Shown piece after piece: positions 12,229 through 28,287 of a stretch of 64,000 nucleotides of DNA; positions within the stretch are counted from its first letter, which is position 1; each line of letters starts with the position of its first letter. The translations under genes were made by a program, and so were the position numbers. Below the pieces are notes generated by a model. The model worked only from the letters and a program-made list of their open reading frames with translations, did not search any database and was not told the DNA's origin. Origin of the DNA: Dehalococcoidia bacterium (GTDB lineage: Bacteria > Chloroflexota > Dehalococcoidia > Lucifugimonadales > UBA3495); the NCBI GenBank assembly GCA_030740155.1, contig JASLXV010000008.1:42474-106473 (forward strand), given 5' to 3'.

Positions 12229-12247
12229 CGGGAAACCGCCGGCCTAA

Positions 12248-12590: not shown

Positions 12591-13529
12591 TCAGACGGGC
12601 ACCGCAAGCCGTTCAAGAAGCTCGTGGATGACGCTCTCCCGGGTGCGTTCCCGCAGGCGGGCCTGGGACTTGAGAATCATGCGGTGGGACAGCGCGTGGG
12701 GGGCCAGGCGCTTCACGTCGTCGGGGGATACATAGGCTCGCCCCTGGATCGCCGCCAGCGCCTGGCTGCACCGGTAAAGGCCCAAGCTGGCCCGGGGGCT
12801 GGCCCCCAGCTCCACGTCCGGATGCTGCCGCGTCGCTTGGACCAACTGGACCAGATAGTTTCGCAGTACCGGATCGAAGTGCACCTCCCTAACCTCGGAC
12901 TGGAAGCTGAGGATCTGGTCGGCGAGCGCCACCGGTTGGAGGCCGGCCAGCGGGTCCGCCGATTGGAAGCGCGACAGCATCTCCTCTTCTTCTGACTCCT
13001 CCGGGTAGCCCAGCTGTAACCGGAGCAGGAACCGGTCGAGTTGGGCTTCCGGCAGCGGAAAGGTGCCCTCCAGCTCGATGGGGTTCTGGGTGGCGATGAC
13101 CAGAAACGGGGCTGGGAGCGGAATGGTGGCGGTGTCGACGGTCAACTGGCGCTCCGCCATGGCTTCCAGGAGGGCCGACTGGGTCCGGGGAGTGGCCCGG
13201 TTGATCTCGTCGGCCAGCACAACCTGGGCGACGACCGGGCCAGGCCGGAACTCGAACTCGCCGGTCTTCTGGTTAAAGTAGTGGATACCGGTTATATCCG
13301 AAGGCATCAAATCCGGGGTGAATTGGATCCGTTTGAAACTACAGTTTATCGAGTCGGCCAGGGAACGGGCCAGGGTCGTCTTGCCGATGCCGGGAACATC
13401 TTCGATGAGAATGTGGCCGTTGCTGAGGATGGCCGCCAGGCACAGGTCGATGACCTCCCCTTTGCCCACCAACACCTTCTCGACGTTGGCTCGAATCCTG
13501 CCGGCAATTTCCGCGACTGTCTCGGTCAT
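12591..13529 (-). CDS. MoxR-family AAA+ ATPase
   Basis: HILIEDVPGIGKT, RIQFTPDLMPSD, LADEINRATPRTQSALLEAM, ATQNPIE, LPEAQLDRF. Confidence 0.95.
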   Translation of the reverse strand: MTETVAEIAGRIRANVEKVLVGKGEVIDLCLAAILSNGHILIEDVPGIGKTTLARSLADSINCSFKRIQFTPDLMPSDITGIHYFNQKTGEFEFRPGPVVAQVVLADEINRATPRTQSALLEAMAERQLTVDTATIPLPAPFLVIATQNPIELEGTFPLPEAQLDRFLLRLQLGYPEESEEEEMLSRFQSADPLAGLQPVALADQILSFQSEVREVHFDPVLRNYLVQLVQATRQHPDVELGASPRASLGLYRCSQALAAIQGRAYVSPDDVKRLAPHALSHRMILKSQARLRERTRESVIHELLERLAVPV

Positions 13530-13581
13530 CTATTCACATCAACCCCTGTGGAGGTTCCTTCGGGCTGCCGCTGTCCGGTTG

Positions 13582-14301
13582 TCATGAGGTCGCCCCGGCA
13601 TCCCGGACGGCCAGGTACTCTTCGGCGTCTCGAAGGTCTTTGAAGGAATCTACACTTCGCCAAAAGAATTGGGTCTTAAGCGCCGCGATCTGGCCGGCGC
13701 TGGCCAGTCTGGGGAAGGTTCCGGTCTCGTGATCTCCCGTTTCGGGTAACTCGCTGGCGATTTCACGGTCCAAAATGTAGATGCCGGCGTTGATCCAGTA
13801 GGGCATCTCCACCTTCTCCCGGAACCCTACCACGCCGTCCTGGCCGCCCAGGTCCACCAAGCCGTAGGGGCTGACCATGGGGACCACCATGATGGTCGCG
13901 AGGTGAGATGGATTGGCCGCCTTCTTCTCCAGATGCCGGTCCAACAGAGCCTCGAGGCGCTCCTCGGTGATGATGTCACCGTTGAGCACCGCCACCGTGC
14001 TTTCCGCCTCGGGCACCAGCGGTAACCCCTTGCGGATGGCCCCGCCGCGGCCCAACGGGGTCTCTTCGACGCTGTAGTGGGCGCGGATTCCGAACCGCTG
14101 CCCATCGCCGAAGTGGTCCCAGATGGACTCCCAGCGGTAGCCCGCCAGGAAAACCACGTCGGTCACGCCGGCCTCCTTGAGCCACTCCACCTGGTGGGCC
14201 AGGATAGGCTTGCCGCGGAGGGGCGCCATCGGCTTGGGAAGGGTATCGGTCAACGGCCGGAGCCTTTCTCCCTTGCCGCCGGCCAGGATCAACGCGTACA
14301 T
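13582..14301 (-). CDS. Sugar-phosphate nucleotidyltransferase (NTP_transferase family)
   Basis: ALILAGGKGERLRPLT..LPKPM, EETPLGRGG, LNGD, INAGIY. Confidence 0.9.
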   Translation of the reverse strand: MYALILAGGKGERLRPLTDTLPKPMAPLRGKPILAHQVEWLKEAGVTDVVFLAGYRWESIWDHFGDGQRFGIRAHYSVEETPLGRGGAIRKGLPLVPEAESTVAVLNGDIITEERLEALLDRHLEKKAANPSHLATIMVVPMVSPYGLVDLGGQDGVVGFREKVEMPYWINAGIYILDREIASELPETGDHETGTFPRLASAGQIAALKTQFFWRSVDSFKDLRDAEEYLAVRDAGATS

Positions 14302-14694
14302 ATGGGACGGCCTCGCACCTAAACTTGGCAGCTTCCTGCCCATTCCCGGATGCAGAATAATATAACCGCCGCCGGGAGGGTTGGTCAACGGAACCCGGCG
14401 TTCGGCCGGCCGGGGGACGGGTGGGGCGGAGCTTCAGGAACCATCGAGTACGCATTGCATCAAACCCCACGACATGGCGGACGAAGGATTGGCGGGCTGG
14501 GATAACCCGTGGCGGAAGTCATGCTCCCGTTCCAGCTCTCCCTTCGCCCGCAGACCGGTCTATACTTGTGACTAGATGGCGCTGGACTCTGTCCGCTTCC
14601 CTCACCGGCCGAGAGCCCCATCGCAGCGCTATAATTACCCGTCATTTTCCCTCGCGAGTTTTGCCAAACGCTGACCCGCACTAAGGAGGAACTC

Positions 14695-15537
14695 ATGAAG
14701 TTTGGCGCATACATGTTCTCAACTGATTACTCCATCCGGCCCGATGACCTGGCGCGCCTTCTGGAAGAGAGAGGGTTCGAGTCCATGTGGGTGCCGGAGC
14801 ACACTCACATCCCGGCGGCCCGGCAAACGCCCTTTCCCGGTGGCGGCGATCTGCCGGAGATGTACTGGCACACCTACGATCCCTTTGTGGCGCTGACCGC
14901 CGCGGCTGCCGCCACCACCAGCTTGAAGCTGGGAACGGGCATCTGCTTGATGATCCAGCGGGACCCAATCGTTACCGCCAAGGAAGTCGCCAGCCTTGAC
15001 CGGCTCTCGGGAGGGCGCTTCATCTTCGGTATCGGCGGCGGCTGGAACGCCGAGGAGATGGGCCACCATGGCACAAGATTCAGGAGCCGCTGGCGGCTGC
15101 TGCGGGAACGGATTCTGGCCATGAAAGAGATATGGACCAAGGACGAGCCGGAGTTTCATGGGGAGTTCGTCAACTTCGACAAGATCTGGTCCTACCCCAA
15201 GCCGGTGCAGCAACCTCATCCTCCCATCATCATGGGAGGTGACGGCGCCACCACCTTCGACCGGGTCGTGGAGTTCGGCGACGGCTGGATGCCCCTCGGA
15301 GGCAGGGGTTCGCAAGGCCCCAGTCTGGCCGAGAAGATTTCCAAGCTCAAGCGGCAGGCCGAGGAGGCGGGCCGCGACCCGGCGTCCATCTCAATAAGCA
15401 CCTTCGGTACCCGGCCGGACCCGGACGTGATCCAAGGGATGGAAGCGGCCGGCGTGGACCGGGTGATTTTTTCTCTGCCGTCGCGAGAGCGCGAGGCCGT
15501 GCTCTCCATCATCGACCGGTGCGCCAAGTTCATATGA
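14695..15537 (+). CDS. LLM-class F420-dependent oxidoreductase (Rv2161c-like)
   Basis: GFESMWVPEHTHIP, DPFVAL, AKEVASLDRLSGGR, PKPVQQPHPP. Confidence 0.9.
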   Translation: MKFGAYMFSTDYSIRPDDLARLLEERGFESMWVPEHTHIPAARQTPFPGGGDLPEMYWHTYDPFVALTAAAAATTSLKLGTGICLMIQRDPIVTAKEVASLDRLSGGRFIFGIGGGWNAEEMGHHGTRFRSRWRLLRERILAMKEIWTKDEPEFHGEFVNFDKIWSYPKPVQQPHPPIIMGGDGATTFDRVVEFGDGWMPLGGRGSQGPSLAEKISKLKRQAEEAGRDPASISISTFGTRPDPDVIQGMEAAGVDRVIFSLPSREREAVLSIIDRCAKFI

Positions 15538-15765
15538 CCTGAGGCCCCGCCATTTCCAGCATCCGGAGGAACCCGCCGTGTGATCGGTGTTCACATGGTC
15601 TTCTCGAATATTCCGCGCTGTCCTCGGCCGCGGAAAGGCCACTGGTTGCAGGCGTGCTGGCTCTTCGACCCATCGCAGGTTGACACCGGTGAACGCCTGC
15701 CGTTCTCGATCAATGGCTCGATCAGAGGGGAAGCAGGTCTACTGGGCACCAGCGTATCGGGGTAA

Positions 15766-15804
15766 AACAGGAGGCCCAGCCTGACATACCCGCCAGGCTG
15801 GGCC
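15766..15804 (-). terminator. Terminator hairpin downstream of the ThDP enzyme
   Basis: Perfect 11-bp stem GGCCCAGCCTG/CAGGCTGGGCC, followed by TCCTGTTTT on minus strand. Confidence 0.6.
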
Positions 15805-15847
15805 CGCTGCTTTGTTTAGAACCAAACGGACTTCTTCGAAGCCCTCG

Positions 15848-17512
15848 TCAGTAGGTGCGCTGCTGCCTCGACCGGCCGGCCATGTTCCCGTAGGAAACCT
15901 CGGGGTCGATCACCACGTCAATCAGCGCGGCCTTGCCGGAGGCGAAGGCGCGTTTGATGGCGGGACCGATTTCGGCCGGGTCCGTGACCCTCTCGGCGAA
16001 ACCTCCCAGGCCCTCCATGACCTTGGCGTAGTCGGTGTCCTGGGACAGATAGGTGCCGATGGCGCGCCCGCCGCGGCGGAGGACTCCCTGAGTCACCTGG
16101 TTCCAGGCCCCGTTGTTGCCCAGGATCGAGACGACGGGCAGGTTGAACCGGACGAACGTCTCGATGTCGAACCCGGTTAGCCCAAAGGCCCCGTCGCCGT
16201 AGATGATGACGACCTGCTTGCCGGGCCGGGCCAGTTGGGCCGCCATGGCGAAGCCGCTACCGGCCCCCAAGCAGCCGAAGGCGCCCGGGTCCAGCCAGTG
16301 GCCGGCCTGGTTGATCCCCAGCGCCCGGGCGGCGAAGGTTACGAAGTCCCCGCCGTCTCCGATGACCGTGGCGTCGGGCTCCAGAACGTCCCCCAGTTCC
16401 TTCATCACCCGCATGGGGTGGATGGGGCTCTGGTCGCTGTTCAGCAACGGCTCGTCGGCCGCCTTCAGCGCGTGGTCTTCGGTCATGACTTCTTCGACCC
16501 AGGCATTACCCGGCGACTTGTAGCCGGATTTCTTGAGTTCGTCCATTATCTGGCCCAAAATGGCCTTAGAGTCGCCTACCAGGCCGACATCCACGTCCCG
16601 GTTCATTCCTATCTTGCCGGGGTCCATCATGATCTCGATCAGCTTGGGGTTCTGAGGGAACATGTTATCGGACCCGTACCCCAACCTGAAGTCGATGGGA
16701 GTGCCGATGAGGATAACCGTGTCCGACTTGACCAGGCCGTAGCGGCGTCCCAGGCCGCCCAGATTGGGGTGGTCGGAGGGGATGCTGCCGCGACCCATCG
16801 CATTCAGGAACACGGGCGAGCCAATCATCTCAACGAACTCGCGCAGTTCCTCCGAGGCTTCGGACCACCAGATGTCGGAGCCGGCCAGCACCATGGGCCG
16901 CTCCGTCGTCTTGAGGATGTCCACCACCTTCGCGACGTAATCGGGGTCGCCGTAAGCCATCGCCTCGGTCCGGTACCTCTGAGGATACCTGACGCCCGAC
17001 TCCTCAACCTTGCCAATTACGATGTCTCTTGGAATCTCTAGGTAGGAAGGGCCTGGGATACCCGTGGTGGCCATGCGAAAGGCTTCAGCGAGGTACTCCG
17101 GTATCCGCTCGGTCCTCTTCACCTGCTCGGCAAACTTGGTTATCGGCTTCAAGAAAGTGACGCTGTCGAAGTCCTGGAGGCCGCCCTTCAGGTGCTCCTT
17201 GATGTCCGCGTTGCCTCCGATGACAATCATGGGGCTGGGAGCTTGGAAGGCATTGGCGATTCCCGTGACGGCGTCGGTGACGCCGGGGCCCGCGGTGACG
17301 ATGCATACGCCGGGCTTGCCGGTAACCTTGGCCCAGCCTTCCGCGGCGTGGGCTGCCACCTGCTCGTGGCGAACGTCGATGACCTGGATGCCTTCATCGA
17401 CGCAACCTTCGTACAGGTCATAGATGTGCCCGCCGTTCAGAGTGAATACGTACTCGATCCCTTCATGTTTCAGGGCTTTGGCGAAGAGATGTCCGCCGTC
17501 TATTTCTGCCAT
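15848..17512 (-). CDS. ThDP-dependent enzyme (acetolactate synthase-like / 2-hydroxyacyl-CoA lyase-like)
   Basis: DVRHEQ, TAGPGVT, WLDPG.FGCLG, GDGAFG..GNN ThDP motif. Confidence 0.88.
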   Translation of the reverse strand: MAEIDGGHLFAKALKHEGIEYVFTLNGGHIYDLYEGCVDEGIQVIDVRHEQVAAHAAEGWAKVTGKPGVCIVTAGPGVTDAVTGIANAFQAPSPMIVIGGNADIKEHLKGGLQDFDSVTFLKPITKFAEQVKRTERIPEYLAEAFRMATTGIPGPSYLEIPRDIVIGKVEESGVRYPQRYRTEAMAYGDPDYVAKVVDILKTTERPMVLAGSDIWWSEASEELREFVEMIGSPVFLNAMGRGSIPSDHPNLGGLGRRYGLVKSDTVILIGTPIDFRLGYGSDNMFPQNPKLIEIMMDPGKIGMNRDVDVGLVGDSKAILGQIMDELKKSGYKSPGNAWVEEVMTEDHALKAADEPLLNSDQSPIHPMRVMKELGDVLEPDATVIGDGGDFVTFAARALGINQAGHWLDPGAFGCLGAGSGFAMAAQLARPGKQVVIIYGDGAFGLTGFDIETFVRFNLPVVSILGNNGAWNQVTQGVLRRGGRAIGTYLSQDTDYAKVMEGLGGFAERVTDPAEIGPAIKRAFASGKAALIDVVIDPEVSYGNMAGRSRQQRTY

Positions 17513-17790
17513 GACGCCTCCCGATGTAAATTTGCGAAACGTGGTACCCCGCGGTTGAAAGGTGGCCTTCGCCGGCGGCGACGCGCCTCCAGCCGGTTGC
17601 CCGGCTACAGCCCGGTGTCGCTACCAGTATTGCCGTCCGAAACTTCCCAGGTGGGGCAGCGAGCCACCGGCGGCCGCTGGCTTCCGGAAAGAGGCACGGT
17701 GCCGCGGGATGCTGGGCCGGGCTCAGGAGCCTCGGCCGGGATTTCCCATATGAGATTCATTGCCCGCGAAGCTATGGTGCGCCGGGGAAA

Positions 17791-17819
17791 ACGTTATCAC
17801 CTACCCCCGATGCTGTCAA
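17791..17819 (-). promoter_or_regulatory. Putative promoter about 280 nt upstream of the ThDP gene
   Basis: TTGACA-N17-TAACGT on minus strand. Confidence 0.4.
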
Positions 17820-17890
17820 ACGCTGGAGGGGCCATCGTCCTATCTGTGTTCTTGACTAGAATTGGGCTCAGGTACGTGTTCTGAACATCC

Positions 17891-18422
17891 CTACGGCGGC
17901 CCAGATTCGGTGGGGTCCCGGACCACGACCATCACCGTGATGTCGTCCGACTGGGAGGCGTGGTCCACGAAAGCGTCGACCTGAGCGATCAAGTCATCCT
18001 GGATTTCCTGAGCCGGGCGTCCCAGGCCGGCGCGAACAATCTCCCGCAGCCGCTCTTCGTCGAAGAACTCCTCGTCGGCGTTTTGCGCCTCGGTGATGCC
18101 GTCAGTGTATAGCAGCAGCACGTCGCCGGGGTCCATCTGAACAACCCGCTGCTCCCAGGCCATGCCGTCGACGATGCCCAGCGGCACGCCGGTGCTATCC
18201 AATTCCCGCACCGTGGTCCCATCTTGGGCACTCAACAGATACGGAGGGTTGTGCCCGGCATTGGAGTAGGTCAACTCTCCCGACGATGGGTCGAGGACCC
18301 CGTAGAACACTGTAACGAACAGGCCGGCGCTCGTGTCTGCCAGGATCCGGTGATTGGCGGCGCCGAGGGCAAGTTCGGGCTGCGTTTCGTATTCCACGGC
18401 GTAGGTGCGGATGAGCGTGCGG
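17891..18422 (-). pseudogene. C-terminal fragment of a SpoIIE/RsbU-type PP2C phosphatase
   Basis: RTLIRTYA, FVTVFYGVLD, YSNAGHNPP, LLYTDGITEA, QSDDIT present; N-terminal motifs and start are missing. Confidence 0.75.
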
Positions 18423-18606
18423 CGAGGGCACGCAGGCCCGCACTGCTGATGTACTCCACCCCGGACATGTCGACGACCAGCTTGTGCTGGCCCGCCGACA
18501 CCGCCGCCTGCAAGGCCTGGTCCAGGTCGGCTGCGGCTTGGGTGTCGACCCGCGCCTCCGGCAAGAACACGATGACATCGCCTTCGACTCGTTGCGTAAT
18601 CTCCAT
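18423..18606 (-). pseudogene. N-terminal fragment of a STAS anti-anti-sigma factor
   Basis: AGGAGG RBS, MEITQRVEGDVIV...LVVDMSGVEYISSAGLRAL, then homology breaks and SpoIIE sequence follows in another frame. Confidence 0.75.
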
Positions 18607-18688
18607 CTGTCCTGCCTCCTGACATTAGGCGGCCAGCCCCCGGTGCCCGGCGCGTGATTGGCAATGGCCACTGGTAGCCGGGAGCGTT

Positions 18689-18930
18689 CTAGAGTTCGGT
18701 CACCAGCCGGGAATCAACCTCCCCGGCGCCGACGACACGCCCGTCGCGCACCTCTTCCACCCGTGGAATCCGGCCGGCAAGTTCACGGTCATGGGTGGCC
18801 ATGACAGTGGTTTTGCCCTGCTGCACCAACGTCTCGAAAAACTCGAAAACCAGGCCCGCCGAGATCGTGTCCAGGCTACCGGTCAGTTCATCGCCGACGA
18901 TCAGGTCCGGGTTGTTGATTAGCGCCCGAA
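18689..18930 (-). pseudogene. C-terminal fragment of an ABC transporter ATPase (LolD/MacB type)
   Basis: RALINNPDLIVGDELTGSLD, MATHD, DGRVV; Walker A and signature motif absent. Confidence 0.75.
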
Positions 18931-19141
18931 GATGGCCACCCGGGTCGGTTGAATAGTGCATCATTCAAGGTCTTCAATCAATAACCCGATGACGGGGCTG
19001 CCAAACGCCTCGGTTCCCCCTTGGCTTGCCCTCGGCGAGGGTTTATGATGACGCCACCCAGCTATAGGCAAACGGATGTCGTGGAGCATGGGGGACAATG
19101 GGGCGCGTTCGGGGCTAGAAGGCCCCCAAAGGAGAACGACG

Positions 19142-20332
19142 ATGAAGATCAAGAATATCCGGGCGGTCAACGTCAACATCCCGCGGATCCAGCCCAAAAC
19201 GAAAGCCCGGCGGCCCGGCTGGAACGCCAAAGCACCGAGGGCGCTCCCGCTCAACAAGTACCCGGAGTTTTCAACTGCCCACGGCTGGATGCCGGGCCGA
19301 GGCGCCCAGCGAGAGGTCTGGGTGCAGGCGACCGCCGAGGACAGTACCTGGGGCCTGGGATTGTGTAGCTTTGGGGAACCCGTGGCCTCGATGGTCGACT
19401 ACCACTACGCGCCGCTCCTCGAGGGCCGGGACTGCATGGCCCTGGAATACCTGAATGACGTGATGTGGCGCTCGACTCAGCGTTTCGGCTCGGGAGGTGT
19501 GGGGACGGTGGCTCAGTCCGGCATCGATCTCGCGCTCTGGGACCTGAAGGGCAAGCTGCTGGGACAGCCGGTGTACAGCCTCTTGGGCGGACCCGTGCGG
19601 GAGAAGATCCGGCCGTATTGCACCTGCGACGACCTGGATTGGTCGTTGGAGTTGGGGTTCACCGCGTTCAAGATCAGCAACCCGGTGCACTACGAGATGG
19701 GCATAGAGGGCCTGAACATCCTCGAAGAGAAGATAGCGAAGGCCCGCGATGAGGTTGGGCCGAACCGGGAACTCATGTTCAACCCGGTGATGTCTTTCAA
19801 CGTGGAGTTCACCATGCGGCTCGCGGAACGGCTCAGGCCCTACGGACTGCGATGGTTGGAGGAGCCGTTGATTCCCGCCAACCTGGAGGGGCACATCCAG
19901 TTGAAACAGGCAATTACCTGGATTCCGCTGGCGACGGGCGAGCATCATCAAGGCCGCCACGCGTTCCGGCAACTGGTAGAGAACCAAGCCGTTGACGTGG
20001 TGCAGCCCGACATCCGGTGGTGTGGCGGGTTGTCGGAGGCGGTCAAGATTCATACCATCGCCGAGGCGGCGGGGATCGTCACCATTCCGCACCTGGGAGC
20101 CGGGTTACCCTTCGGCCAGCATTTCGCCTTCGCGATGCCGGAGTCGCCGCTGGCGGAATTCTGGTTGGGCTCCGACCCCGGTATCCCGCTGGAAGAGGTG
20201 ACCGGAATACCGGGTATGGCTCTGCCCAAAGACGGTTACATAATTCCCTCGAACGCTCCGGGCTTCGGAATGGAGATTCCCGAAGGCTGGATAGAGCCAT
20301 GGAACCACGCATCAGCGATGAAGCTACGCTAG
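19142..20332 (+). CDS. Mandelate racemase/enolase-superfamily protein (L-rhamnonate dehydratase-like)
   Basis: SGIDLALWDLKGK, PVYSLLGG, WLEEPL, ATGEH, QPDIRWCGG; AAGGAG RBS. Confidence 0.88.
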   Translation: MKIKNIRAVNVNIPRIQPKTKARRPGWNAKAPRALPLNKYPEFSTAHGWMPGRGAQREVWVQATAEDSTWGLGLCSFGEPVASMVDYHYAPLLEGRDCMALEYLNDVMWRSTQRFGSGGVGTVAQSGIDLALWDLKGKLLGQPVYSLLGGPVREKIRPYCTCDDLDWSLELGFTAFKISNPVHYEMGIEGLNILEEKIAKARDEVGPNRELMFNPVMSFNVEFTMRLAERLRPYGLRWLEEPLIPANLEGHIQLKQAITWIPLATGEHHQGRHAFRQLVENQAVDVVQPDIRWCGGLSEAVKIHTIAEAAGIVTIPHLGAGLPFGQHFAFAMPESPLAEFWLGSDPGIPLEEVTGIPGMALPKDGYIIPSNAPGFGMEIPEGWIEPWNHASAMKLR

Positions 20333-20693
20333 AAGTTGCGTTAGGTAAGGATACGTAGCCCGGTGGGGCAGCCCGCCCCGGCCGGCACCCCTGCCCGTGG
20401 GGGAAGTTTAACCGGACCCGAATTGGTTGACGCAGTGATTAAGGAGACCTCGGTAGGAGAGTTTGTTGCCCGTCGCTCGGGCCCGTTTCAAAGCGGCAGA
20501 CCCGGATGATGCGAGGTCCGGCGGACCTAGAGAAGGAACCCGCCCGTTCGCATTTACACTCCAACCGGCGGAACCTCACCCTCGCCTAACATGCTCCCAT
20601 TCCTGTATAAGTAATTGGGGCCGCCTCTCTCTTCACTTTTCCAGGCGTCCTGGGTGCGCCGAAAGATCGGCCCATTAGAAGAAAGGACTCAAT

Positions 20694-21950
20694 ATCACTA
20701 CGTCACCGAAGGATGACCCTCGGGCCGGTCGCCGAATTTTCTACGGGTGGATCATTGTTGGCGCGGCGGCCCTCGCGGCATTTGGCAGCGGCCCCGGCCA
20801 GTCGTACGTCTTCTCCGTTTTCCTGGATTCGATAATCTCCGACACCGGGTTGTCCAGGTCGGGCATATCCGCTCTATACCTGGTGAGCACCGCCGTAAGC
20901 GCCCTGATGGTCAGCGTCGTCAGTCGCATGGCCGACCGGTTTGGGCCGCGAAGAATGTTGGTCGTAGTTGGGCTGGCCTTCCCGGCGGCCTGCTTCGGGA
21001 TGGCGACCATGACCAACCTGACGCTATTCTACGTGGCCTTCATCAGCCTTCGCGCTCTCGGCCAGGGGTCGTTGCCAATCAACGCCACTCTGTTGGTGAA
21101 CCAATGGTTCATATCCCGTCGCGGTATGGCGATCGCGATCATGGGACTCGGGATGGTGCTTTCGACCGCGATCCTACCCCCGCTGGCCAGATTGCTGATC
21201 GACAATATTGGCTGGCGCGAGGCCTACGCCTTCCTCGGGATGATGTCGATGGTTCTCGTTGTGGCCCCAGCGGTGCTGTTCGTTCGCAACAGGCCCGAAG
21301 AGATCGGGCTGTTTCCCGATGGCAAGCCCCATCCGCCATCGGTGGAAGCCCGGCAATCCAGGCTCGGCCCTGGCCGGGAAAGGCGGGTCTTGAGCACGCC
21401 GGCTTTCTGGCTCTTGGCAATACCTCTGGCAACGCCGAGCCTGGTATCGACGGCGTTGATGTTCCACCAGACATCCATATTCGTCGAGAATGGGCTGAGT
21501 GCAAACCTGGCGGCGGGAGTCTTCGTCATTTACGCGGCCGCCTCCGCGGTAACCTCAATGATCGCCGGTGCTGTTGTTGACCGAACCGGGCCGAAAGCCC
21601 TTTACGCGTTCATTATGGTCTTGTTTCTCGTGTCGCTCGGATTGGCGGTGGCCATCGACTCCATCTTCCTCGCGGTGCTCTATATCGTTGTCCTGGGTAT
21701 CGCCGGCGGTTTCCACTCCATCGTCTCGGGGGTCATTTGGGCGCATTACTACGGCCGTCACCGGCTTGGCCGAATTCAGGGGACGGCCACGACAATAGGG
21801 ATTTGTGGCTCCGCCGCCGGACCTCTGCTGCTGGCACTGTTTCACGATATGACCGGCACCTACACGGCGGGGATGGTGGCGATGCTGGTGCTGCCGGCAT
21901 TGTCTCTGGTGAGCATCGGGTTGGCCCGCCCGAAGGGCCTCGCCGGTTAA
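20694..21950 (+). CDS. MFS transporter (start probably non-canonical ATC at 20694)
   Basis: Frame is open from 20679 and encodes FYGWIIV...GPGQSYVFSVF before the first TTG; ADRFGPRR motif A; many TM segments. Confidence 0.85.
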   Translation: MTTSPKDDPRAGRRIFYGWIIVGAAALAAFGSGPGQSYVFSVFLDSIISDTGLSRSGISALYLVSTAVSALMVSVVSRMADRFGPRRMLVVVGLAFPAACFGMATMTNLTLFYVAFISLRALGQGSLPINATLLVNQWFISRRGMAIAIMGLGMVLSTAILPPLARLLIDNIGWREAYAFLGMMSMVLVVAPAVLFVRNRPEEIGLFPDGKPHPPSVEARQSRLGPGRERRVLSTPAFWLLAIPLATPSLVSTALMFHQTSIFVENGLSANLAAGVFVIYAAASAVTSMIAGAVVDRTGPKALYAFIMVLFLVSLGLAVAIDSIFLAVLYIVVLGIAGGFHSIVSGVIWAHYYGRHRLGRIQGTATTIGICGSAAGPLLLALFHDMTGTYTAGMVAMLVLPALSLVSIGLARPKGLAG

Positions 21951-22099
21951 GTGAAATACGCGCCGGCCGGTTCAGAGGCCTGGCCGTGATATTCTTTTCG
22001 ACAGCCGAGGCTCCCACGCCCATGGGCGGAATATGGGGAAATGTGGTGAGGACAGGCCCAATTACTAGCCGCCTCTTGGCGCCTGTTTGACGTTACTAT

Positions 22100-22173
22100 T
22101 GGCTGCCCCGCCTGGGTTCGAACCAGGGATTTCAGCTCCAAAGGCTGACGTGCTACCACTACACCACGGGGCA
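22100..22173 (-). tRNA. tRNA-Gln(UUG)
   Basis: Full cloverleaf TGCCCCG...TCAGC CT TTG GA GCTGA...GGTTCGAACCC...CGGGGCA G CCA. Confidence 0.95.
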
Positions 22174-22382
22174 TCGCGCCGGGCCGCCCCGCTTTTGACG
22201 GCGGATGGCGCCCTTTGCACTTATATTCTGAAGGGGCCGCCGGAAGGCGTCAAGGGGCGCGTTCATTGACGAACGAGGTGATTGCGTCTCCGGACGGGTG
22301 TCGCGCGCCATCGACGGTGAATCGCCACCGGGGCCGCGCGCCGGATGGAACCTGGGCGCCGACGGAAGGTATAATTGGGAGA

Positions 22383-23183
22383 ATGAGTATGCTGCGGGTT
22401 TCCTTTTTGCACCTGGCGCCGGTTACTGGCGACATCCAGCGCAACCGCCGACTGCTGGAGTCGGCCGTAAAGGTGGCTGCCAAAGAGGGAGCCGGCTGGG
22501 CGATTACCCCGGAGCTGTGGGTCTCCGGCTACCTGTTCGTGAAGCAGATCGGCACCGATTGGATTCTCTCCCAGCCCGACGATTGGATGCGAGGCTTCTG
22601 CCGGTTGGTCGGAGAGCTGGGCCTGACCGTCTTTCTCTCCCACCCGGAGCGGGACCCGGAATCAGACCGGCTCTACAACACCGTTTTTGTGATCGACCCC
22701 CATGGCAAGATCGTGGGCAAGCACCGCAAGATCAAGCCCCTCCGGGGAACCGAGGCCTGGTCCAGCCCCGGCAGGGAGATAAACCCGGTGGGTGTCGACC
22801 GGCTAAAGGTCGGGATTTTGGTCTGCGCCGATAGCTACCTGAACGACGTTGCCCAGGAGTTAAAAGAGAAGGGCGCTCAGGTCTTGGTGTCACCCGTCTC
22901 CTGGGGGCCCGGCCCCTGCGCGCCTGACGGCGAGTGGGAGCAGCGCACCATCGACACCGGGCTGCCGATCATGGTCTGCAACCGGTCCGGGATCGAGGAC
23001 GAGAGCCTGGACTTCCGGCAGGCCGAGAGCATCGTGGCCCAGCACGGCCGGCGCCTATTGAGCGGGACCTGTGACCGTTCGGTGGTCCTGTCCTTCGACT
23101 GGGACACGGACGCCATGGCTCTTCTCTCCACGGACTTCCGGAGGGCCTACTTGGAAGAAAAGCCCGGCGTCTTGCTCCGGTGA
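22383..23183 (+). CDS. Carbon-nitrogen hydrolase (nitrilase superfamily)
   Basis: Catalytic triad motifs TPEL, HRK and LVCAD. Confidence 0.88.
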   Translation: MSMLRVSFLHLAPVTGDIQRNRRLLESAVKVAAKEGAGWAITPELWVSGYLFVKQIGTDWILSQPDDWMRGFCRLVGELGLTVFLSHPERDPESDRLYNTVFVIDPHGKIVGKHRKIKPLRGTEAWSSPGREINPVGVDRLKVGILVCADSYLNDVAQELKEKGAQVLVSPVSWGPGPCAPDGEWEQRTIDTGLPIMVCNRSGIEDESLDFRQAESIVAQHGRRLLSGTCDRSVVLSFDWDTDAMALLSTDFRRAYLEEKPGVLLR

Positions 23184-23377
23184 TTTGCCGGGACGGGCCC
23201 GGCCCGCCCCGACCGTCCGGACTGAAGGCCGCGCTGAAACCCCAGCACCCAGTCTTGGGTTAGCTGCCGGGGGAAGAGTCGGCGTCGCTATACCGATTGC
23301 AATGACCGGGGCCCGGCATCCGGGGGCAAGGTCTCACCGCGAGGTCTTTCCGGGTGCTGGAGCGGGGGTGAACCGGC

Positions 23378-24253
23378 CTACATTGGGCCGGAGACCGGTT
23401 TCTCGGCCACGAAGAGCCAGTATCCCAGCCGGCCGTCGGCCACCAGGCGGCCCAGCGTGGCGATCAACTCGGGAGCTTGCCGCACCAGGCCGGAGTCCGG
23501 GACGGGCTGGCCGGTGATGCCCTGCCAGGCCAGGAACGCGCCGAGCTTGGTCTCCAGGGAGTCCAATAGCTTGATGATCTCGGTGGAAGCGTCGACCTTC
23601 TGGATATCCCGCAGTCCGGCGCCCTCCAACAGTTGCGCGTAGCCTTCCACATCCAGGGCGTCCGACAGGCAGAGTATCCGGCCCACGGCGCCGTCCAACT
23701 CCTTAGGCAGGCTGCCCGGCGCCACGGTCACGTCGCTCAGGCCGAATTTACCGCCGGGGCTCAACAGCCTCACGGCATCCGCTATCGCCTTGGGCTTATC
23801 CAGGAACAGGCTCATGGAACACTCGCTGAACAGGGCGTCGAAAAACCCGAGGCGCAGCGGCGGCCGCTCTGCATCTCCCTGGATGAAGTAGCTTCCCTTC
23901 GCCTTCGATGCCGCCGTGGTCTCGAGGGCCGGTTCCTGGAGCATCGACGGCTGCGCCTCAGCCTTGGCCTGAGCTTCGGCTACCGCGGCGCGCCCGAACT
24001 CCACCCCCACGACTTTGCAGCGGAAGACCCGGGAGACCGCCATGGCGCTCGCTCCGCGGCCACTGGCCAGGTCCACCACCCAATCTCCCGGCTGAACGCC
24101 CATCAGCCGAGCCAGCCGGTTGGTCAGGGCCAAACCTCCGGGATGCAATGTTTCGCCCAGGATAATGCGCGCCAGTTCCGACTGGTAGAGGTCGGCGCAA
24201 CAGGCTTTGGCCTGGGCTTGCTCCAGCACCTCCGGGCTTCTTCCTGGCGTCAT
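23378..24253 (-). CDS. Class I SAM-dependent methyltransferase with ArsM-like cysteines
   Basis: KACCADLY, LHPGGLALT, VVDLASGRG (motif I), GDAE, SECS, LSPGG, SDV, ILCLSDAL. Confidence 0.85.
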   Translation of the reverse strand: MTPGRSPEVLEQAQAKACCADLYQSELARIILGETLHPGGLALTNRLARLMGVQPGDWVVDLASGRGASAMAVSRVFRCKVVGVEFGRAAVAEAQAKAEAQPSMLQEPALETTAASKAKGSYFIQGDAERPPLRLGFFDALFSECSMSLFLDKPKAIADAVRLLSPGGKFGLSDVTVAPGSLPKELDGAVGRILCLSDALDVEGYAQLLEGAGLRDIQKVDASTEIIKLLDSLETKLGAFLAWQGITGQPVPDSGLVRQAPELIATLGRLVADGRLGYWLFVAEKPVSGPM

Positions 24254-24307
24254 CCGGCCCTCATCTGGCGCCTACCTACGAGCGGGTAGCAGTCGATTAT
24301 CACCAGT

Positions 24308-25843
24308 CTATCGCTCCTTGGACGGCCGAGTATTTCCCGCCAGGGGCCGGATCTTGGTCTGCTCCCGAACCAGTTGTTCGCGGATGCGCTCCCGGTAGCC
24401 GACCGAGTTGTAGGTGCAGAAGGGGATAACGCGCCCATCGGGGACCAGGATACCGACGCAGCACTTCATGGCTTGCTTCACATTGAAGGTGTACGGGTCC
24501 ATGAAGTCCTTGATGGCGATCTGGAAGATGTGCTGGTTCAAGTGGGCGAGATCGTAGCCCAGGTCCATACCGGGGCCGCAGGCACACTGAAACTGGCTGG
24601 CGGTCATTTCCGTGCCGGCCACCGCTGATGCCGACCAGAGGCCCTCCAGGGCTTTTCGCACTTCGTCGAATTTGGGGAGCTTGGGCAAGGACCGGTTGGT
24701 AATATAATCCAAATATTCGTCAATGTTGAGGAGCCTGGGGAGGGGCATGATCTTCTCCCCGTCGACCAGGACGTAAGAGTTCACCTGGCAGGTCGGGAAG
24801 CAACAGGGGACCGGCACGAAGTCTTCTAGGACGAACCGGCCCTTGGTCTGGTCGACGATACCATGGATCACGTCGGGAATCGTCACCCGCTGCATTGGAT
24901 CGAAAGGCATGTGCCGCCCTACGTGGGTCACCGGTTGGAGGACCACCCCGCGGACCGCCGGGTGCCGCAGGCCGAACTCCACGATCGCGCCCACCTCGTC
25001 CACGTTGACCCCATACTCGATGGCCGCGACCAGCACCGTGTTCAGGCCAGCCTGATGCAGGCGGTCCAGGGCCAGCAGCTTCAGGTCCAACAGGTCCTCG
25101 CCCCGGATGGTCCTGTAGGTTTCCGGCCGGAGCCCGTCGAATTGGAAGTAGACCACCGGTTCCAGCTTGGCCAACTCTTCCAGGAACCGGTCATCCTTGG
25201 CGATGCGTATCCCGTTGGTGTTGACCATCACCTGGCGGATGCCCCGGTCTTTGGCCGCCTGGATCATCTCCAGGAGTTGGGGGTGAATCGTGGGCTCTCC
25301 CCCGCTGAACTGGATGACCTCCGGGTCGCCCTCGATCTCGACGAACCGGTCGAGCATGCCTTCCACCTGCTCCAGGGTGAGGCTGTAGCCGGCGCCGGCG
25401 TTGGCGAAGCAGACCGGACAGTTGAGGTTGCAGGCGGTGTTGACCTCGATGAGGGCCAGGCAGATGTGTTGCTTGTGTTCCGGGCACAGGCCGCAGTCCA
25501 GGGGGCAACCATCCTTAACCTCGGTGCTGAACTCCAGGGGCAAGGTCCCCGGCTTGTTGAACTTGACCGAGTCGACATACATCTGGCTGTCGGAGCTGAT
25601 GATGCCCTCGAAGCACCCGTGGCTGGGACACCGCTTGCGCATGAAGACCTTGCCGTCCCGGATGATTATCTGGGCATCGATAACCGCCTGGCACTCCGGG
25701 CAGATGCTCCTGGTCAGCTCGTGGAATATGTAATCGGCGTCCTGCTTGACGCGGAGACCGGCGCCGTTGGTCCGCTGACCTCCCGGAACGCCGTTGCTCG
25801 TCCCGTTACTATTCGGTGCTCCGCCGGGTGGGTGGGTGCTCAT
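24308..25843 (-). CDS. Radical SAM protein of the Tes/GDGT-MAS (MJ0619)-like family
   Basis: N-terminal CPEC...CPSHG, GCPLDCGLCPEH, CNLNCPVC radical SAM motif, FSGGEPT, TNG, YFQFDG, C-terminal FMDPYTFN...CC...DGRVIPFCTYN. Confidence 0.88.
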   Translation of the reverse strand: MSTHPPGGAPNSNGTSNGVPGGQRTNGAGLRVKQDADYIFHELTRSICPECQAVIDAQIIIRDGKVFMRKRCPSHGCFEGIISSDSQMYVDSVKFNKPGTLPLEFSTEVKDGCPLDCGLCPEHKQHICLALIEVNTACNLNCPVCFANAGAGYSLTLEQVEGMLDRFVEIEGDPEVIQFSGGEPTIHPQLLEMIQAAKDRGIRQVMVNTNGIRIAKDDRFLEELAKLEPVVYFQFDGLRPETYRTIRGEDLLDLKLLALDRLHQAGLNTVLVAAIEYGVNVDEVGAIVEFGLRHPAVRGVVLQPVTHVGRHMPFDPMQRVTIPDVIHGIVDQTKGRFVLEDFVPVPCCFPTCQVNSYVLVDGEKIMPLPRLLNIDEYLDYITNRSLPKLPKFDEVRKALEGLWSASAVAGTEMTASQFQCACGPGMDLGYDLAHLNQHIFQIAIKDFMDPYTFNVKQAMKCCVGILVPDGRVIPFCTYNSVGYRERIREQLVREQTKIRPLAGNTRPSKER

Positions 25844-26000
25844 CTTCTCTCCCTGAGGGCGTTTTGTTCCGGCGCGGGTTTGAGTATACTTCATACTTCA
25901 GATGCGTCTGGTTTCAATCGGATGCACGCGGATGCCCGTGGCTACCGGGCTCGGAACACCGGACCCGGCGGCGAACCTCAACTGGATGGCGGTGAGAAGC

Positions 26001-27212
26001 ATGACATCAAATTCCGGCGCCATGTCTCTCTCGGGAGTAGTGGTGCTCGATCTATCCCAGATCCTGGCTGGGCCCATGTGCACCATGCTCTTGGGGGACA
26101 TGGGGGCCGACATTATCAAGATTGAGAAACTCGACGGTGGCGACGACTTCCGGCGCATGGGCCCACCCTTCATCAAAGGCTGGTCGGCGGCGTTTCTCGC
26201 GATGAACCGCAACAAGCGAAGCCTGGCCCTGGACCTGCGGAACGAAAGGGGCCGGGCGGTATTCAACCGGCTGGTGGCTCGGGCCGACGTGCTGGTCGAG
26301 AACTTCCGCCCGGGGGTGATGAAGCGGCTGGGTTTGGGTTACCCGGAGCTGGCCAAGCTGAAGCCCAGCCTGGTCTACTGCTCCATCTCCGGCTTCGGCA
26401 GTAATGGCCCCTACCGGGACCGGGGCGGCTTCGACCTGGTGGCGCAAGGGATGAGCGGCTTGATGAGCTTCACCGGGCACCCGAAAAACCCACCGGCGAA
26501 GGTAGGCGTGCCCATCGCCGACGCCTCAGCCGGGTTGCTGGCCGCCAACGGTGTCCTATGCGCCTACGTTCACGCGCTTCGGACCGGCCTGGGCCAGTTC
26601 GTGGACACCTCCCTGATGGAGGCCGGCATCAGCTACACGATTTTGGAGTCTGCCGTCTACTTTGCCGACGGCGAGATACCCGGCCCGCTGGGGTCGGCCC
26701 ACCGGTTGACGGCGCCGTACCAGGCCTTTGGCACCAGGGACGGCTATATCAACATCGGTGCGGCGACTCAGCCCATTTGGGAGCGGTTTTGCCGGGCCAT
26801 CGGGCGCGAGGAGCTGATTGCCGACCCCCGGTTCAAGGCTACCGGCGACCGGAAGGCGAGGGAGGCGGAGCTTGCTGACCTTTTATCGGAAACATTGTGC
26901 CAAGAGACCACCGGCCATTGGCTGGACCTGCTGGAGAAGGCCGGGGTGGTGGCGGGGCCGATCTACAACATGGAGCAGGTGTACCAGGACCCCCAGGTGA
27001 AAGCCCGGGAGATGCAGGTCGACTTAGAAGACCCGGAGCTGGGCACGCTACACAACATCGGCATCCCGGTGAAGCTGTCGGCGTCGCCGGGGCGCATCCG
27101 CCGCCGGGCCCCGGCCCTTGGGGAGCACAGCGTCGAAATCCTCGAAGAGGCCGGACTTTCTGGGGAAGAGGTGGAGGAGTTGCTGCGGGCGGGAGTAGTG
27201 GCGGTGGGATAG
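26001..27212 (+). CDS. Family III CoA-transferase (CaiB/BaiF)
   Basis: VLDLSQILAGP, GADIIKIE, NRNKRS, ENFRPG, GFDLVAQGMSG, APALGEH. Confidence 0.93.
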   Translation: MTSNSGAMSLSGVVVLDLSQILAGPMCTMLLGDMGADIIKIEKLDGGDDFRRMGPPFIKGWSAAFLAMNRNKRSLALDLRNERGRAVFNRLVARADVLVENFRPGVMKRLGLGYPELAKLKPSLVYCSISGFGSNGPYRDRGGFDLVAQGMSGLMSFTGHPKNPPAKVGVPIADASAGLLAANGVLCAYVHALRTGLGQFVDTSLMEAGISYTILESAVYFADGEIPGPLGSAHRLTAPYQAFGTRDGYINIGAATQPIWERFCRAIGREELIADPRFKATGDRKAREAELADLLSETLCQETTGHWLDLLEKAGVVAGPIYNMEQVYQDPQVKAREMQVDLEDPELGTLHNIGIPVKLSASPGRIRRRAPALGEHSVEILEEAGLSGEEVEELLRAGVVAVG

Positions 27213-27382: not shown

Positions 27383-28210
27383 CTACAAGTCCCGCCAGGG
27401 ATGTCCATCCGTCGCCTGAAGGAAGCGGTCTACCAGGAAAGAACTGGAGGCGATGACGCTGGGCGTCCGCAGGCTGGCGGAACGGCCCTGTTTGTCCATC
27501 ACCACGCCTCCTGCCTCTCGCACCAGCACCAGGCCGGCGGCGATGTCCCAGGGCGACAGGGAGTGGTGGAAGTACAGGTCAACCCGGCCGGCGGCGGCGT
27601 AGGCCACCCCCAGGGCGGCCGAACCCAGCAAACGCAGGCCAAGCAATCCCGGCCATAGGGAGCGGATCATGTCGAGGGCCACTCCGGCTTTCTCGTCGAC
27701 GTAGCCCAGGTCGCAGCAAAGCAGGGCCATGCCAAGGTCCCGGCCTTCGGAGACCGACAGACGCACGCCGTTGACGAAGGCGCCCTGCCCCTCCTGCGCG
27801 GTGAACATCTCCTCGCGGACCGGGTCGTAGGTTACCCCCAGCACCGGCTCGTCGCCACGGGCCAGGGCCACTACCGTGCAGAAGTGGGGAATGCCGTTGG
27901 CATAGTTGCGGGTGCCGTCCAGGGGGTCGACCACCCAGGTGTAGGGGGAGTCAGACTCGACGGGCGGTGATTCCTCGGCGAGGATACCGAAGCTGGGATA
28001 CTCTTTCCGGAGCAGCTCCAGCACCGCCCGCTCCGCCGCCAGGTCCACGTCGGTGACTATGTCCGTCGGGCCCTTGAAGCTGACCTGCATGGATGTCCGG
28101 AAGCGTTCTTGAAGGATGCGGCCCGATATACGCGCCGCGTCCACGGCCACGTCCATCGCGGACTTGCCGGAGCGGGAATTCGGGAGTTGGCCTTGAGACA
28201 GTTGGGTCAT
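27383..28210 (-). CDS. Inositol monophosphatase family protein
   Basis: DIVTDVD, AEE, WVVDPLDGTRNY, GSAAL, PWDIAAG. Confidence 0.92.
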   Translation of the reverse strand: MTQLSQGQLPNSRSGKSAMDVAVDAARISGRILQERFRTSMQVSFKGPTDIVTDVDLAAERAVLELLRKEYPSFGILAEESPPVESDSPYTWVVDPLDGTRNYANGIPHFCTVVALARGDEPVLGVTYDPVREEMFTAQEGQGAFVNGVRLSVSEGRDLGMALLCCDLGYVDEKAGVALDMIRSLWPGLLGLRLLGSAALGVAYAAAGRVDLYFHHSLSPWDIAAGLVLVREAGGVVMDKQGRSASLRTPSVIASSSFLVDRFLQATDGHPWRDL

Positions 28211-28225
28211 GCTAGGCAATTCCTG

Positions 28226-28287
28226 CAGCAATCAGCGGCAACTTCACAGTCGTTAGCTGACGGCTGAGCGCTGAATGCTGGCAGCTA
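28226..28287. repeat. 7-bp tandem GCTGANN repeats with an inverted TCAGC arm
   Basis: GCTGACG GCTGAGC GCTGAAT GCTGGCA at 28256-28283, preceded by CAGCAATCAGC. Confidence 0.5.

Follow-up and report, generated by a model that had tools for sequence, protein, structure and literature searches.

The locus analysed here raises a question of function. A radical SAM protein that resembles the archaeal tetraether synthase Tes (GDGT-MAS) is encoded beside a methyltransferase (MT), and it may join lipid tails, as Tes does, or carry out different chemistry. We examined a window, meaning the whole stretch of 64,000 nucleotides, from a SAR202-type Dehalococcoidia genome that is 94% complete.

A conserved two-gene cassette and its insertion site

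The radical SAM gene (24308..25843, minus strand) encodes a 511-aa member of the Tes/GDGT-MAS superfamily that falls in an unnamed, methyltransferase-paired clade. Its start was assigned to the ATG at 25843, which has GGGAG just 5' of it; an in-frame ATG upstream at 25894 would give an alternative protein of 528 aa. The MT gene (23378..24253, minus strand) encodes a class I SAM methyltransferase of 291 aa that is DVU_1556/ArsM-like, with conserved C18C19, HPGG, C145 and C195. Both open reading frames are intact and are separated by a 54-bp spacer (24254-24307). The original prediction had described two co-oriented genes with this spacing and a series of motifs, all of which are present. A divergent CoA-transferase family III gene (PF02515; 25902..27212, plus strand) lies on one side of the pair and a nitrilase gene (22215-23183, plus strand) on the other. 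No island was seen in GC content along the DNA, a repeat search gave matches at chance level only, and a promoter and terminator scan returned two weak promoter-like sites, both within the radical SAM gene. One RNA-library run (0.12 of words present) contained a single 208-base piece, which lay in the MT gene; the body of the radical SAM gene was not represented. A protein atlas look-up gave automatic names only.

The radical SAM and MT genes were present in the same 21 of 61 relatives. They were adjacent in 78 of 80 SAR202 loci (one of the other two had no MT within 6 kb, and one lay at a contig edge), in 23 of 23 Chloroflexota loci examined at 55% identity or more, and in 53 of 80 metagenome loci. 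Because the genes adjoin in 78 SAR202 loci and share one presence pattern across the 61 genomes, the pairing is more than chance. The pair also occurs in soil metagenomes and on a plasmid of Mycolicibacterium, the cultured strain being M. vanbaalenii JOB5, and it is missing from 19 of 37 genomes of the family. We conclude that the radical SAM and MT genes make up a single conserved cassette, gained and lost as a unit, in line with the conserved pair of the original prediction. Our literature search, which covered few subscription journals, returned no paper describing the pair. A possible fusion at metagenome locus L248 was rejected: the 829-aa frame lacks the C-terminal motifs of the radical SAM protein and looks frameshifted, so it was kept among the 53 paired loci but not counted as a fusion.

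Distance matrices of 77 radical SAM and MT pairs correlated with r 0.70, a value to which shared ancestry contributes. Structure prediction of the two proteins together scored 0.39 compared with 0.00 for the best control; the runs shared at least 35% of contacts and the partner pLDDT was at least 74. Of 157 solved complexes, 116 came up to the mark used, as did 2 of 215 mismatches, and scores of 0.60 or less at the mark came from only 18 of the 157 solved complexes and from both mismatches. The prediction thus lends weak support to a direct radical SAM-MT complex.

We considered three neighbours as further members of the cassette. PlsY comes after the pair in 70 of 80 SAR202 loci, which would suit a role in lipid synthesis. 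However, it is present in 35 of 37 family genomes whether or not they carry the pair, stands directly beside the CoA-transferase in 7 of 12 pair-less loci examined, and lies 31 kb from the pair in the present genome. We conclude that PlsY merely resides at the insertion site. The CoA-transferase was also rejected, as a resident border gene that adjoins PlsY in pair-less loci, and so was the nitrilase, which was not among the conserved neighbour clusters.

Relation of the radical SAM protein to Tes and TrsS

The radical SAM protein carries Pfam domains PF04055 and PF23545 and matched GDGT-MAS (MJ0619; 7TOL) with an E-value of 4.4e-83. Its structure model (pLDDT 92) found GDGT-MAS (7TOM) in Foldseek at E 3.4e-47, TM 0.78 and 32% identity, with the next match at TM 0.35. 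The predicted metal sites, all encoded on the minus strand, follow the same plan. A rubredoxin-type site, C48xxC51..C72xxH75 (25619..25702), was present in 25 of 25 clade rows and 11-12 of 12 Tes rows and corresponds to C9/C12/C33/H36 of GDGT-MAS; an N-terminal auxiliary [4Fe-4S] motif, C113xxxC117xxC120xxH123 (25475..25507), was present in 25 of 25 clade rows and has C73/C77/C80/His as its counterpart (PMC9433317). The radical SAM core C138xxxC142xxC145 (25409..25432) is invariant in 146 rows, and the C-terminal cluster region (24416..24511) includes K445, C461C462, I465 and C476, ending in C461C462..PFC476. All aligned cysteine and histidine ligands of the four predicted sites (rubredoxin, two auxiliary and radical SAM) are present.

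The differences from Tes lie elsewhere. In the alignment to GDGT-MAS, K445 replaces Met439 and I465 replaces Tyr459, residues reported to be completely conserved in 1000 archaeal homologues (PMC9433317). The commonest residues of the 25 clade rows include no Met and no Tyr at these positions; the clade has K/Q/T for Met439, I/V/F for Tyr459, and Asp for the His that follows the Met. The substitutions given in the original prediction, ISCMHFMD to IAIKDFMD and CCIHY to CCVGI, read the same in the 7TOL alignment, and the shorter mid-protein insert that it described was also found: the segment between alignment positions 345 and 447 has 98-102 residues in 25 clade members compared with 118-132 in 12 Tes proteins, a 23-column insert being missing. 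The clade instead has five extra conserved cysteines. In C347C348xxxC352 (24788..24805, minus strand), C352 aligns with a Tes-conserved cysteine, and C347 and C348 are extra and stand where Tes carries the insert. C420xC422 (24578..24586, minus strand) is absent from Tes and is a CxxC in most other clade members. Unlike Tes, the clade is paired with an MT, and it is dispensable within the family.

The protein scored below the NCBIfam cut-offs for both Tes (NF045702; 347.2 bits, cut-off 450) and TrsS (NF045646; 353.4 bits, cut-off 490). A phylogeny with Tes and TrsS had been proposed as a check. Our FastTree of 135 rows (SH-like support, midpoint-rooted for drawing, without 14 near-identical SAR202 rows and with three plasmid proteins added) put Tes on one side of a branch (SH 99) and the radical SAM protein in a separate set of 30 rows (SH 99); TrsS rows formed one side of a further branch (SH 100) that did not include it. 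Its nearest relatives on the tree are unnamed, Lgt-associated Tes-like proteins, two of whose loci nest within the cassette clade; these loci differ in having a prolipoprotein diacylglyceryl transferase-family gene upstream and no such MT in the flanks examined. Judged by sequence, the radical SAM protein is neither Tes nor TrsS, because it falls below both cut-offs, has a clade of its own, lacks Met439, Tyr459 and the 23-column insert, and has gained five cysteines. The predicted Tes-like architecture with a probably different substrate holds.

TrsS shares the radical SAM superfamily with the cassette enzyme, and its DVU_1556 partner (NF045667) has the same cysteine pair as the cassette MT. 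However, TrsS retains the Met in 18 of 18 cases, the cassette gene has no in-frame TGA, unlike that of the TrsS (seleno)protein, and no N-terminal CC is present in the DVU_1556 MT examined. The TrsS locus encodes a CoA ligase and a C-GCAxxG-C-C protein, neither of which is among the conserved neighbours of the cassette, and the DVU_1553/1555/1556-type context seen at loci L154 and L158 is likewise absent from the conserved neighbours of the clade. Pairs of a radical SAM enzyme and a DVU_1556-type MT are spread over three branches or more: TrsS (L154), haloarchaeal plasmids (L171 and L295) and the cassette clade.

Methyltransferase cysteines and arsenic genes

Two MT cysteines, C145 in SEC (23819..23821, minus strand) and C195 in LCLSDA (23669..23671, minus strand), were conserved in 150 of 150 homologues. 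They line up with the cysteines of SNC and GECLAGA in an arsenite methyltransferase of known structure (5EVJ, E 8.9e-8), and their spacing of 50 residues is that of C174/C224 in CmArsM (PMC6138428). These two ArsM-like cysteines claimed for the MT do align with ArsM. In CmArsM the pair binds organoarsenicals and is enough for methylation of MAs(III) (PMC6138428). The MT also has an N-terminal CC that may correspond to that of ArsM/AS3MT. This C18C19 (24197..24202, minus strand), of which C18 is kept in 145 homologues and C19 in 146 out of 150, lies in the same N-terminal region as cysteines of the genome's own ArsM, where the alignment is gapped, and is a candidate counterpart of the first conserved ArsM cysteine (C44 of CmArsM). 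In contrast, the second ArsM cysteine (C72 of CmArsM, in the GCG motif) is missing, with HPGG at that place.

The best family match of the MT was DVU_1556, at 114.3 bits and yet below the cut-off of 155 (the Mycolicibacterium partner reached 136.3 bits); the match to ArsM (NF008823), at 70.7 bits, was below the cut-off of 263, which another gene in the genome passes. The MT model (pLDDT 89) matched phosphoethanolamine methyltransferase (Z 26.2, rmsd 3.4, 262 aligned) and cyclopropane synthases (Z 25.5, rmsd 2.7, 249 aligned). No ArsM stood among the matches listed, whose top rows were other class I methyltransferases, a result compatible with kinship to ArsM. The C-terminal helical part of the MT is longer than that of ArsM and resembles those of lipid and phosphobase methyltransferases.

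We found no linkage of the cassette to ars operons. The neighbour families scanned, which came from a subset of the neighbours, included no ars resistance family, and no acr3, ArsS or LMW ArsC was seen in the 94%-complete genome. The acr3 gene was found in 4 of 42 cassette genomes and 3 of 19 without the cassette, never on the cassette contig. Elsewhere the present genome has a canonical ArsM, a TGA-containing ArsM-like gene and SelD. Within the family, 34 of 36 genomes have ArsM, irrespective of the cassette. On one plasmid, a relative at 40% identity lies next to TIGR04282/TIGR04283 'arsenosugar' glycosyltransferases; another plasmid example carries no gene named for arsenic.

Thiol-redox and selenoprotein-type genes are found beside the pair, namely disulfide reductase, DsbD/CcdA, DsbA, VKOR, thioredoxin reductase, DUF3179 and GrdB-like genes, as do MerA, ArsR, heavy-metal and DUF692 genes. 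Lipid-linked neighbours include SRPBCC and CDP-alcohol phosphatidyltransferase genes, each in 6 of 76 non-SAR202 paired loci. A flavoprotein (MerA-like) disulfide reductase adjoins 25 of those 76 loci and is unlinked to the pair in the present genome. It was found in 18 of 21 cassette genomes compared with 28 of 279 cassette-less genomes of the phylum (canonical ArsM: 18 of 21 compared with 148 of 279). Within the family the reductase was found in 12 of 18 compared with 2 of 19 genomes, and it was not found in the three order-level cassette genomes. All of these co-occurrence counts are confounded by kinship and genome size. The original prediction included neither this reductase nor sulfur insertion followed by S-methylation.

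Candidate reactions of the cassette

Taken together, these comparisons suggest that the cassette probably furnishes a hydrocarbon chain with a methylated arsenic or sulfur group instead of synthesizing membrane-spanning lipids. Metalloid methylation with radical coupling, the second of three readings offered originally, is our best single guess. The invariant ArsM cysteine pair speaks for it, and the MT fold, nearer to phosphobase and cyclopropane methyltransferases, and the missing ars linkage speak against it. We tentatively propose that the cassette may equip an unactivated carbon, probably the terminus of a lipid or another alkyl chain, with a methylated organoarsenic group. A 5'-deoxyadenosyl radical would take a hydrogen from a single bound alkyl chain, by analogy with Tes. 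Given an altered second lipid site, the resulting carbon radical would combine with As(III) bound to the extra cysteines, in a manner comparable to ArsS and ArsL radicals. The alkyl-As(III) would then be clamped by C145 and C195 of the MT and methylated, much as ArsM treats organoarsenicals; the co-occurring flavoprotein disulfide reductase or a thioredoxin could re-reduce the cysteines, and oxidation of the product would yield dimethylarsinoyl lipids. Radical SAM enzymes form C-As bonds in the arsenosugar and arsinothricin pathways (PMC12159101). In ArsS/ArsM and ArsL/ArsM such an enzyme likewise stands beside an ArsM-type methyltransferase. Their radical SAM family is another one, and neither ArsS nor ArsL was among the top 25 NCBIfam matches of the cassette enzyme; they hand over part of the SAM molecule, whereas an enzyme of the Tes type would presumably activate a separate substrate.

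Methylthiolation split over two proteins, in the manner of MiaB/RimO or LipA, is a somewhat unlikely alternative. The radical SAM enzyme would go no further than the C-S intermediate known for Tes, leaving an unactivated carbon with a thiol or selenol; the MT would S-methylate this group to a methylthioether, and the disulfide reductase would hold the thiol in its reduced form. GDGT-MAS is described as making a thiolated lipid (S-AG) via its C-terminal cluster (PMC9433317), and the aligned cysteines of that cluster are retained here, with the Tes insert and labile Met lost and extra cysteines gained. The thiol-redox and selenoprotein-type neighbours, SelD and the missing ars linkage also fit. 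On the other hand, no sulfur-donor gene is among the conserved neighbours, and the exact ArsM cysteine pair is left unexplained; we know of no thiol methyltransferase that requires such a pair.

A TrsS/DVU_1556-type non-lipid pathway, in which a small molecule, cofactor or protein would be modified in metal or oxidative stress and the cysteines would bind a metal ion instead of a substrate, strikes us as somewhat unlikely. The TrsS cluster is linked to a molybdopterin aldehyde oxidoreductase. The recurrence of such pairs on at least three branches, the CoA ligase and C-GCAxxG-C-C protein of the TrsS locus, and the MerA, ArsR, heavy-metal and DUF692 neighbours favour this pathway; retention of the whole GDGT-MAS fold, whose site is hydrophobic (PMC9433317), the recurring lipid-linked neighbours, the cyclopropane synthases among the nearest MT folds, and the lack of any conserved precursor peptide or cofactor gene near the pair do not. 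The third original reading, a minimal TrsS/DVU_1556 cluster, survives in the nearest family of the MT, but not in the radical SAM protein, which lies outside the TrsS clade, nor in the other cluster genes, none of which appeared among the conserved neighbours of the clade.

The first original reading, synthesis of membrane-spanning lipids, is disfavoured because the radical SAM protein has its own clade, the Tes signature residues and insert are missing, and PlsY lies outside the unit. Tail-to-tail coupling as in Tes, with the MT introducing methyl branches or methylating head groups (brGDGT-type lipids), is quite improbable: the fold and predicted metal sites, the lipid-methyltransferase-like MT fold and the role proposed for bacterial Tes homologues (PMC8941075) are in its favour, and loss of Met439 and Tyr459 does not exclude coupling because the M439A and Y459F/L variants of GDGT-MAS remain active (PMC9433317), but the sub-threshold Tes score, the absence of the cassette from 19 of 37 family genomes and the invariant MT cysteines argue against it.

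Tes homologues in bacteria are taken to be possible sources of branched tetraether lipids, compounds that serve as palaeoclimate proxies. A Black Sea study lists Tes homologues in 111 Chloroflexota MAGs, their activity being unconfirmed (PMC11868695). If many such matches belong to the MT-paired clade, their presence would be an unsafe sign of membrane-spanning lipids. With only two genes, the cassette further offers a compact construct on which new radical chemistry can be tested. Should sulfur be inserted, it would be a new split methylthiolation system; should C-As bonds be made on lipid tails, it would bear on the origin of arsenic hydrocarbons, for which one paper speaks of yet unknown pathways (PMC11009773). 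The narrower proposal that bacteria use the cassette to make omega-dimethylarsinoyl lipids (arsenic hydrocarbons and fatty acids), forming a C-As bond at the terminal carbon of a lipid tail and then methylating the arsenic, is unlikely as it stands. If true, SAR202 and soil Chloroflexota, Actinomycetota and Acidobacteriota would be unrecognised producers of arsenolipids.

The radical SAM protein and its relation to tetraether synthase

The pair consists of two intact genes on the minus strand, one encoding a 511-residue radical SAM protein (24308-25843) and the other a 291-residue class I methyltransferase, MT (23378-24253). They are separated by 54 bp, are present in one copy each in the host genome, and contain all of the motifs cited for them in the original prediction. 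Close relatives are labelled Dehalococcoidia, Chloroflexota or SAR202. The best NCBIfam matches of the radical SAM protein were TrsS (353 bits) and Tes, the archaeal tetraether lipid synthase GDGT-MAS (347 bits), and it fell under both family cut-offs (490 and 450 bits, respectively). A listing in PMC13188914 gives TrsS as a predicted selenoprotein family. GDGT-MAS is the sole strong solved relative (E 4.4e-83), and the model (pLDDT 92) matched 7TOM with a TM of 0.78, the next best match reaching 0.35. The original prediction had called for a phylogeny including Tes and TrsS, and a FastTree tree of 135 proteins placed the window protein apart from both. Tes (12 rows, SH 99) and TrsS (18 rows, SH 100) each formed one side of a branch, and the window protein belonged to a separate 30-row set (SH 99) of 21 MT-paired, two Lgt-associated and seven unlabelled rows.

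Compared with GDGT-MAS, the ligands of all four metal sites are retained, whereas Met439 and Tyr459 of Tes are replaced by K445 and I465. Both Tes residues are reported to be completely conserved in 1000 archaeal homologues and not to be needed for activity in vitro (PMC9433317), so we regard the replacements as a sign of divergence and not of lost function. Also absent relative to Tes is a 23-column insert ahead of C352, a loss that, judging from the alignment, may alter the second lipid pocket. C347, C348 and C462 are present in 25/25 clade rows, with an additional CxC/CxxC near 420; among 49 full-length metagenome proteins from paired loci, 45 had all three features (insert loss, these cysteines and the additional motif). 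One 572-residue homologue (P0122) shares 86% identity over just 54% of the query, possibly reflecting an insertion or frameshift.

Conservation of the pair and its insertion site

Across 61 genomes (the host and 60 relatives), a full-length radical SAM protein and a strong MT match occurred in the same 21 genomes; one genome had fragments only and 39 had neither. The MT gene followed the radical SAM gene in 78/80 SAR202 loci and in all 23 Chloroflexota loci examined with an identity of at least 55%; an SRPBCC-like gene lies between the two in four of these. The neighbourhood survey proposed in the original prediction found the pair to be conserved. Of 80 metagenome loci 53 were paired, often with abutting or overlapping gene ends, and the unpaired ones were mostly at a contig edge or outside the clade. 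In five loci (38-53% identity), an upstream gene was of the Lgt family and the flank examined contained no MT of this kind. Tes-like radical SAM genes also form another large group (L146-L149, L155-L161, L167, L170), whose members are preceded by a prolipoprotein diacylglyceryl transferase-family gene and lack the MT.

The pair is also present on a Mycolicibacterium vanbaalenii plasmid (L169:2438-6312), where it adjoins an Rv1678-Rv1681-type cluster, a deiodinase-like gene, glutaredoxin, CcdA and a disulfide oxidoreductase. Haloarchaeal plasmids (L171, L295) carry a more distant radical SAM gene with a related MT, plus DUF547 and redoxin. Because this radical SAM protein is near TrsS in the tree and no N-terminal CC is present in the MT examined, these may represent a separate pairing.

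Radical SAM and MT distances correlated (r 0.70, 77 pairs), partly from shared ancestry. Complex prediction gave 0.39 for the two proteins versus 0.00 for the best control; the mark used was reached by 116/157 solved complexes and 2/215 mismatches, and of those that reached it, 18 solved complexes and both mismatches were at 0.60 or under. Runs had at least 35% of contacts in common and a partner pLDDT of at least 74, and the modelling weakly suggests a physical complex.

PlsY follows the pair in 70/80 SAR202 loci. We rejected PlsY as a pair member, as it is present in 35/37 family genomes with or without the pair. It is also directly beside the divergent family III CoA-transferase gene, which borders the pair in the window (25902-27212, plus strand), in seven of the 12 loci examined that lack the pair. 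From its presence regardless of the pair and this abutment, we conclude that the pair is a cassette that has been acquired or lost at one fixed position. A PlsY-RecA block follows the pair in most relatives. In the window genome PlsY is 31 kb away, separated by at least some 20 kb of genes for catabolism and transport (about 11400-23200), including MFS and nitrilase genes found by scan and F420-type oxidoreductase, thiamine-diphosphate enzyme and enolase-like genes found by inspection, which suggests a local rearrangement. Short overlapping frames at 17891-18964, like a PP2C phosphatase, an anti-sigma antagonist and an ABC ATPase end on inspection, resemble gene remnants. Myo-inositol-1-phosphate synthase-, glycosyltransferase- and CDP-alcohol phosphatidyltransferase-like genes (4925-7858, by inspection) and an inositol monophosphatase-like gene (27383-28231) are probable phosphatidylinositol lipid genes.

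The methyltransferase and genes that accompany the pair

The best families of the MT were DVU_1556 (114 bits, cut-off 155) and then ArsM (70.7 bits, cut-off 263). Its C145 and C195 align with ArsM cysteines and are invariant (150/150) in homologues from pair loci, bearing out the ArsM-like cysteines of the original prediction; C18 and C19 are kept in 145 and 146 of 150. The matching C174 and C224 of CmArsM are described as an organoarsenical-binding pair sufficient for MAs(III) methylation (PMC6138428). In contrast to ArsM, the MT has HPGG in place of the GCG cysteine. The closest folds to its model (pLDDT 89) were phosphoethanolamine methyltransferases (Z 26.2, rmsd 3.4, 262 aligned), with AtmM and mycolic acid cyclopropane synthases (Z 25.5, rmsd 2.7, 249 aligned) also close; ArsM was not among the fold matches listed. 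Given the sub-cut-off score, the HPGG and these folds, the MT is not an ArsM by membership, and has an ArsM-like cysteine pair within a larger scaffold. The MT of the window carries a 14-residue low-confidence insertion (residues about 100-120, 23988-23911 region) that the other rows displayed in the alignment do not have.

In lineages other than SAR202, the gene most often found beside the pair encodes a flavoprotein disulfide reductase (25/76 paired loci, many of them short); 11 of 14 inspected lack the MerA C-terminal CC and three have it. The MerA-like host orthologue is on another contig (G000:C65:25467-26885; L288, L307). In SAR202 the neighbours of the reductase gene are an amidase gene and a cyclase-like gene, and its distribution over genomes follows that of the cassette: it occurred in 12/18 family genomes that have the pair (in one as a broken copy) versus 2/19 without, and in 18/21 cassette genomes (two known by a radical SAM gene at a contig edge alone) versus 28/279 others in the phylum, contrasts that are inflated by kinship and genome size. 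Three order-level genomes with the cassette yielded no reductase. On one plasmid a reductase relative lies beside TIGR04282/TIGR04283 'arsenosugar' glycosyltransferases; on a second it accompanies a CDP-alcohol phosphatidyltransferase and an ABC transporter, with no arsenic-named genes. Elsewhere (L163, L164), TIGR04283 'arsenosugar' glycosyltransferases scoring above cut-off come immediately after a distantly related (27%) Tes-like radical SAM gene. Further recurring pair neighbours were DUF3179, SRPBCC (6 loci), CDP-alcohol phosphatidyltransferase (6), VKOR (5), phosphate transporter (3), DsbD/CcdA, and Crp and ArsR regulators.

Candidate chemistry of the pair

The original prediction had proposed a survey of links to ars/sel genes, and no linkage to ars genes emerged: acr3 was found in 4/42 cassette genomes versus 3/19 without the cassette, and never on a cassette contig in those 42. 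ArsM is present in 34/36 SAR202 family genomes irrespective of the pair, where acr3 is rare (4/36). It matched in 167/301 Chloroflexota genomes sampled, and the phylum comparison gave 18/21 genomes with the cassette versus 148/279 others. We found no acr3, ArsS or LMW ArsC in the host genome, which encodes a canonical ArsM (G000:C23:82546-83250, L173), SelD, and a gene similar to ArsM that has a single in-frame TGA close to its N-terminus (G000:C81:6068-6901, L174) that probably encodes a selenoprotein; several relatives have similar copies. The arsenic case therefore rests not on gene context but on the cysteine pair and on the precedent of ArsS and ArsL, for which formation of C-As bonds by radical chemistry is described (PMC12159101).

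The reading we prefer, still a tentative one, is that the radical SAM protein would form a C-As bond on an alkyl chain by radical chemistry and the MT would then methylate the arsenic. We favor it because pairing a radical SAM enzyme with ArsM is a scheme already established and, to our knowledge, the invariant ArsM-type cysteine pair has no other demonstrated role. Sulfur insertion followed by S-methylation ranks close behind as a somewhat less probable reading, in keeping with the thiol-redox genes among the pair neighbours and the thiolated lipid intermediate described for GDGT-MAS (PMC9433317). A non-lipid, TrsS-like role is about as plausible as sulfur insertion, and Tes-like coupling of tails seems improbable.

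Tes homologues have been reported from bacteria, and it has been proposed, so far without experimental proof, that they make branched tetraethers (PMC8941075, PMC11868695, PMC13459092, bioRxiv 10.64898/2026.06.23.733905). We found no publication on this radical SAM and MT pair in the literature searched. We conclude that the pair is a real, widespread and uncharacterised two-gene system inside a known enzyme superfamily.
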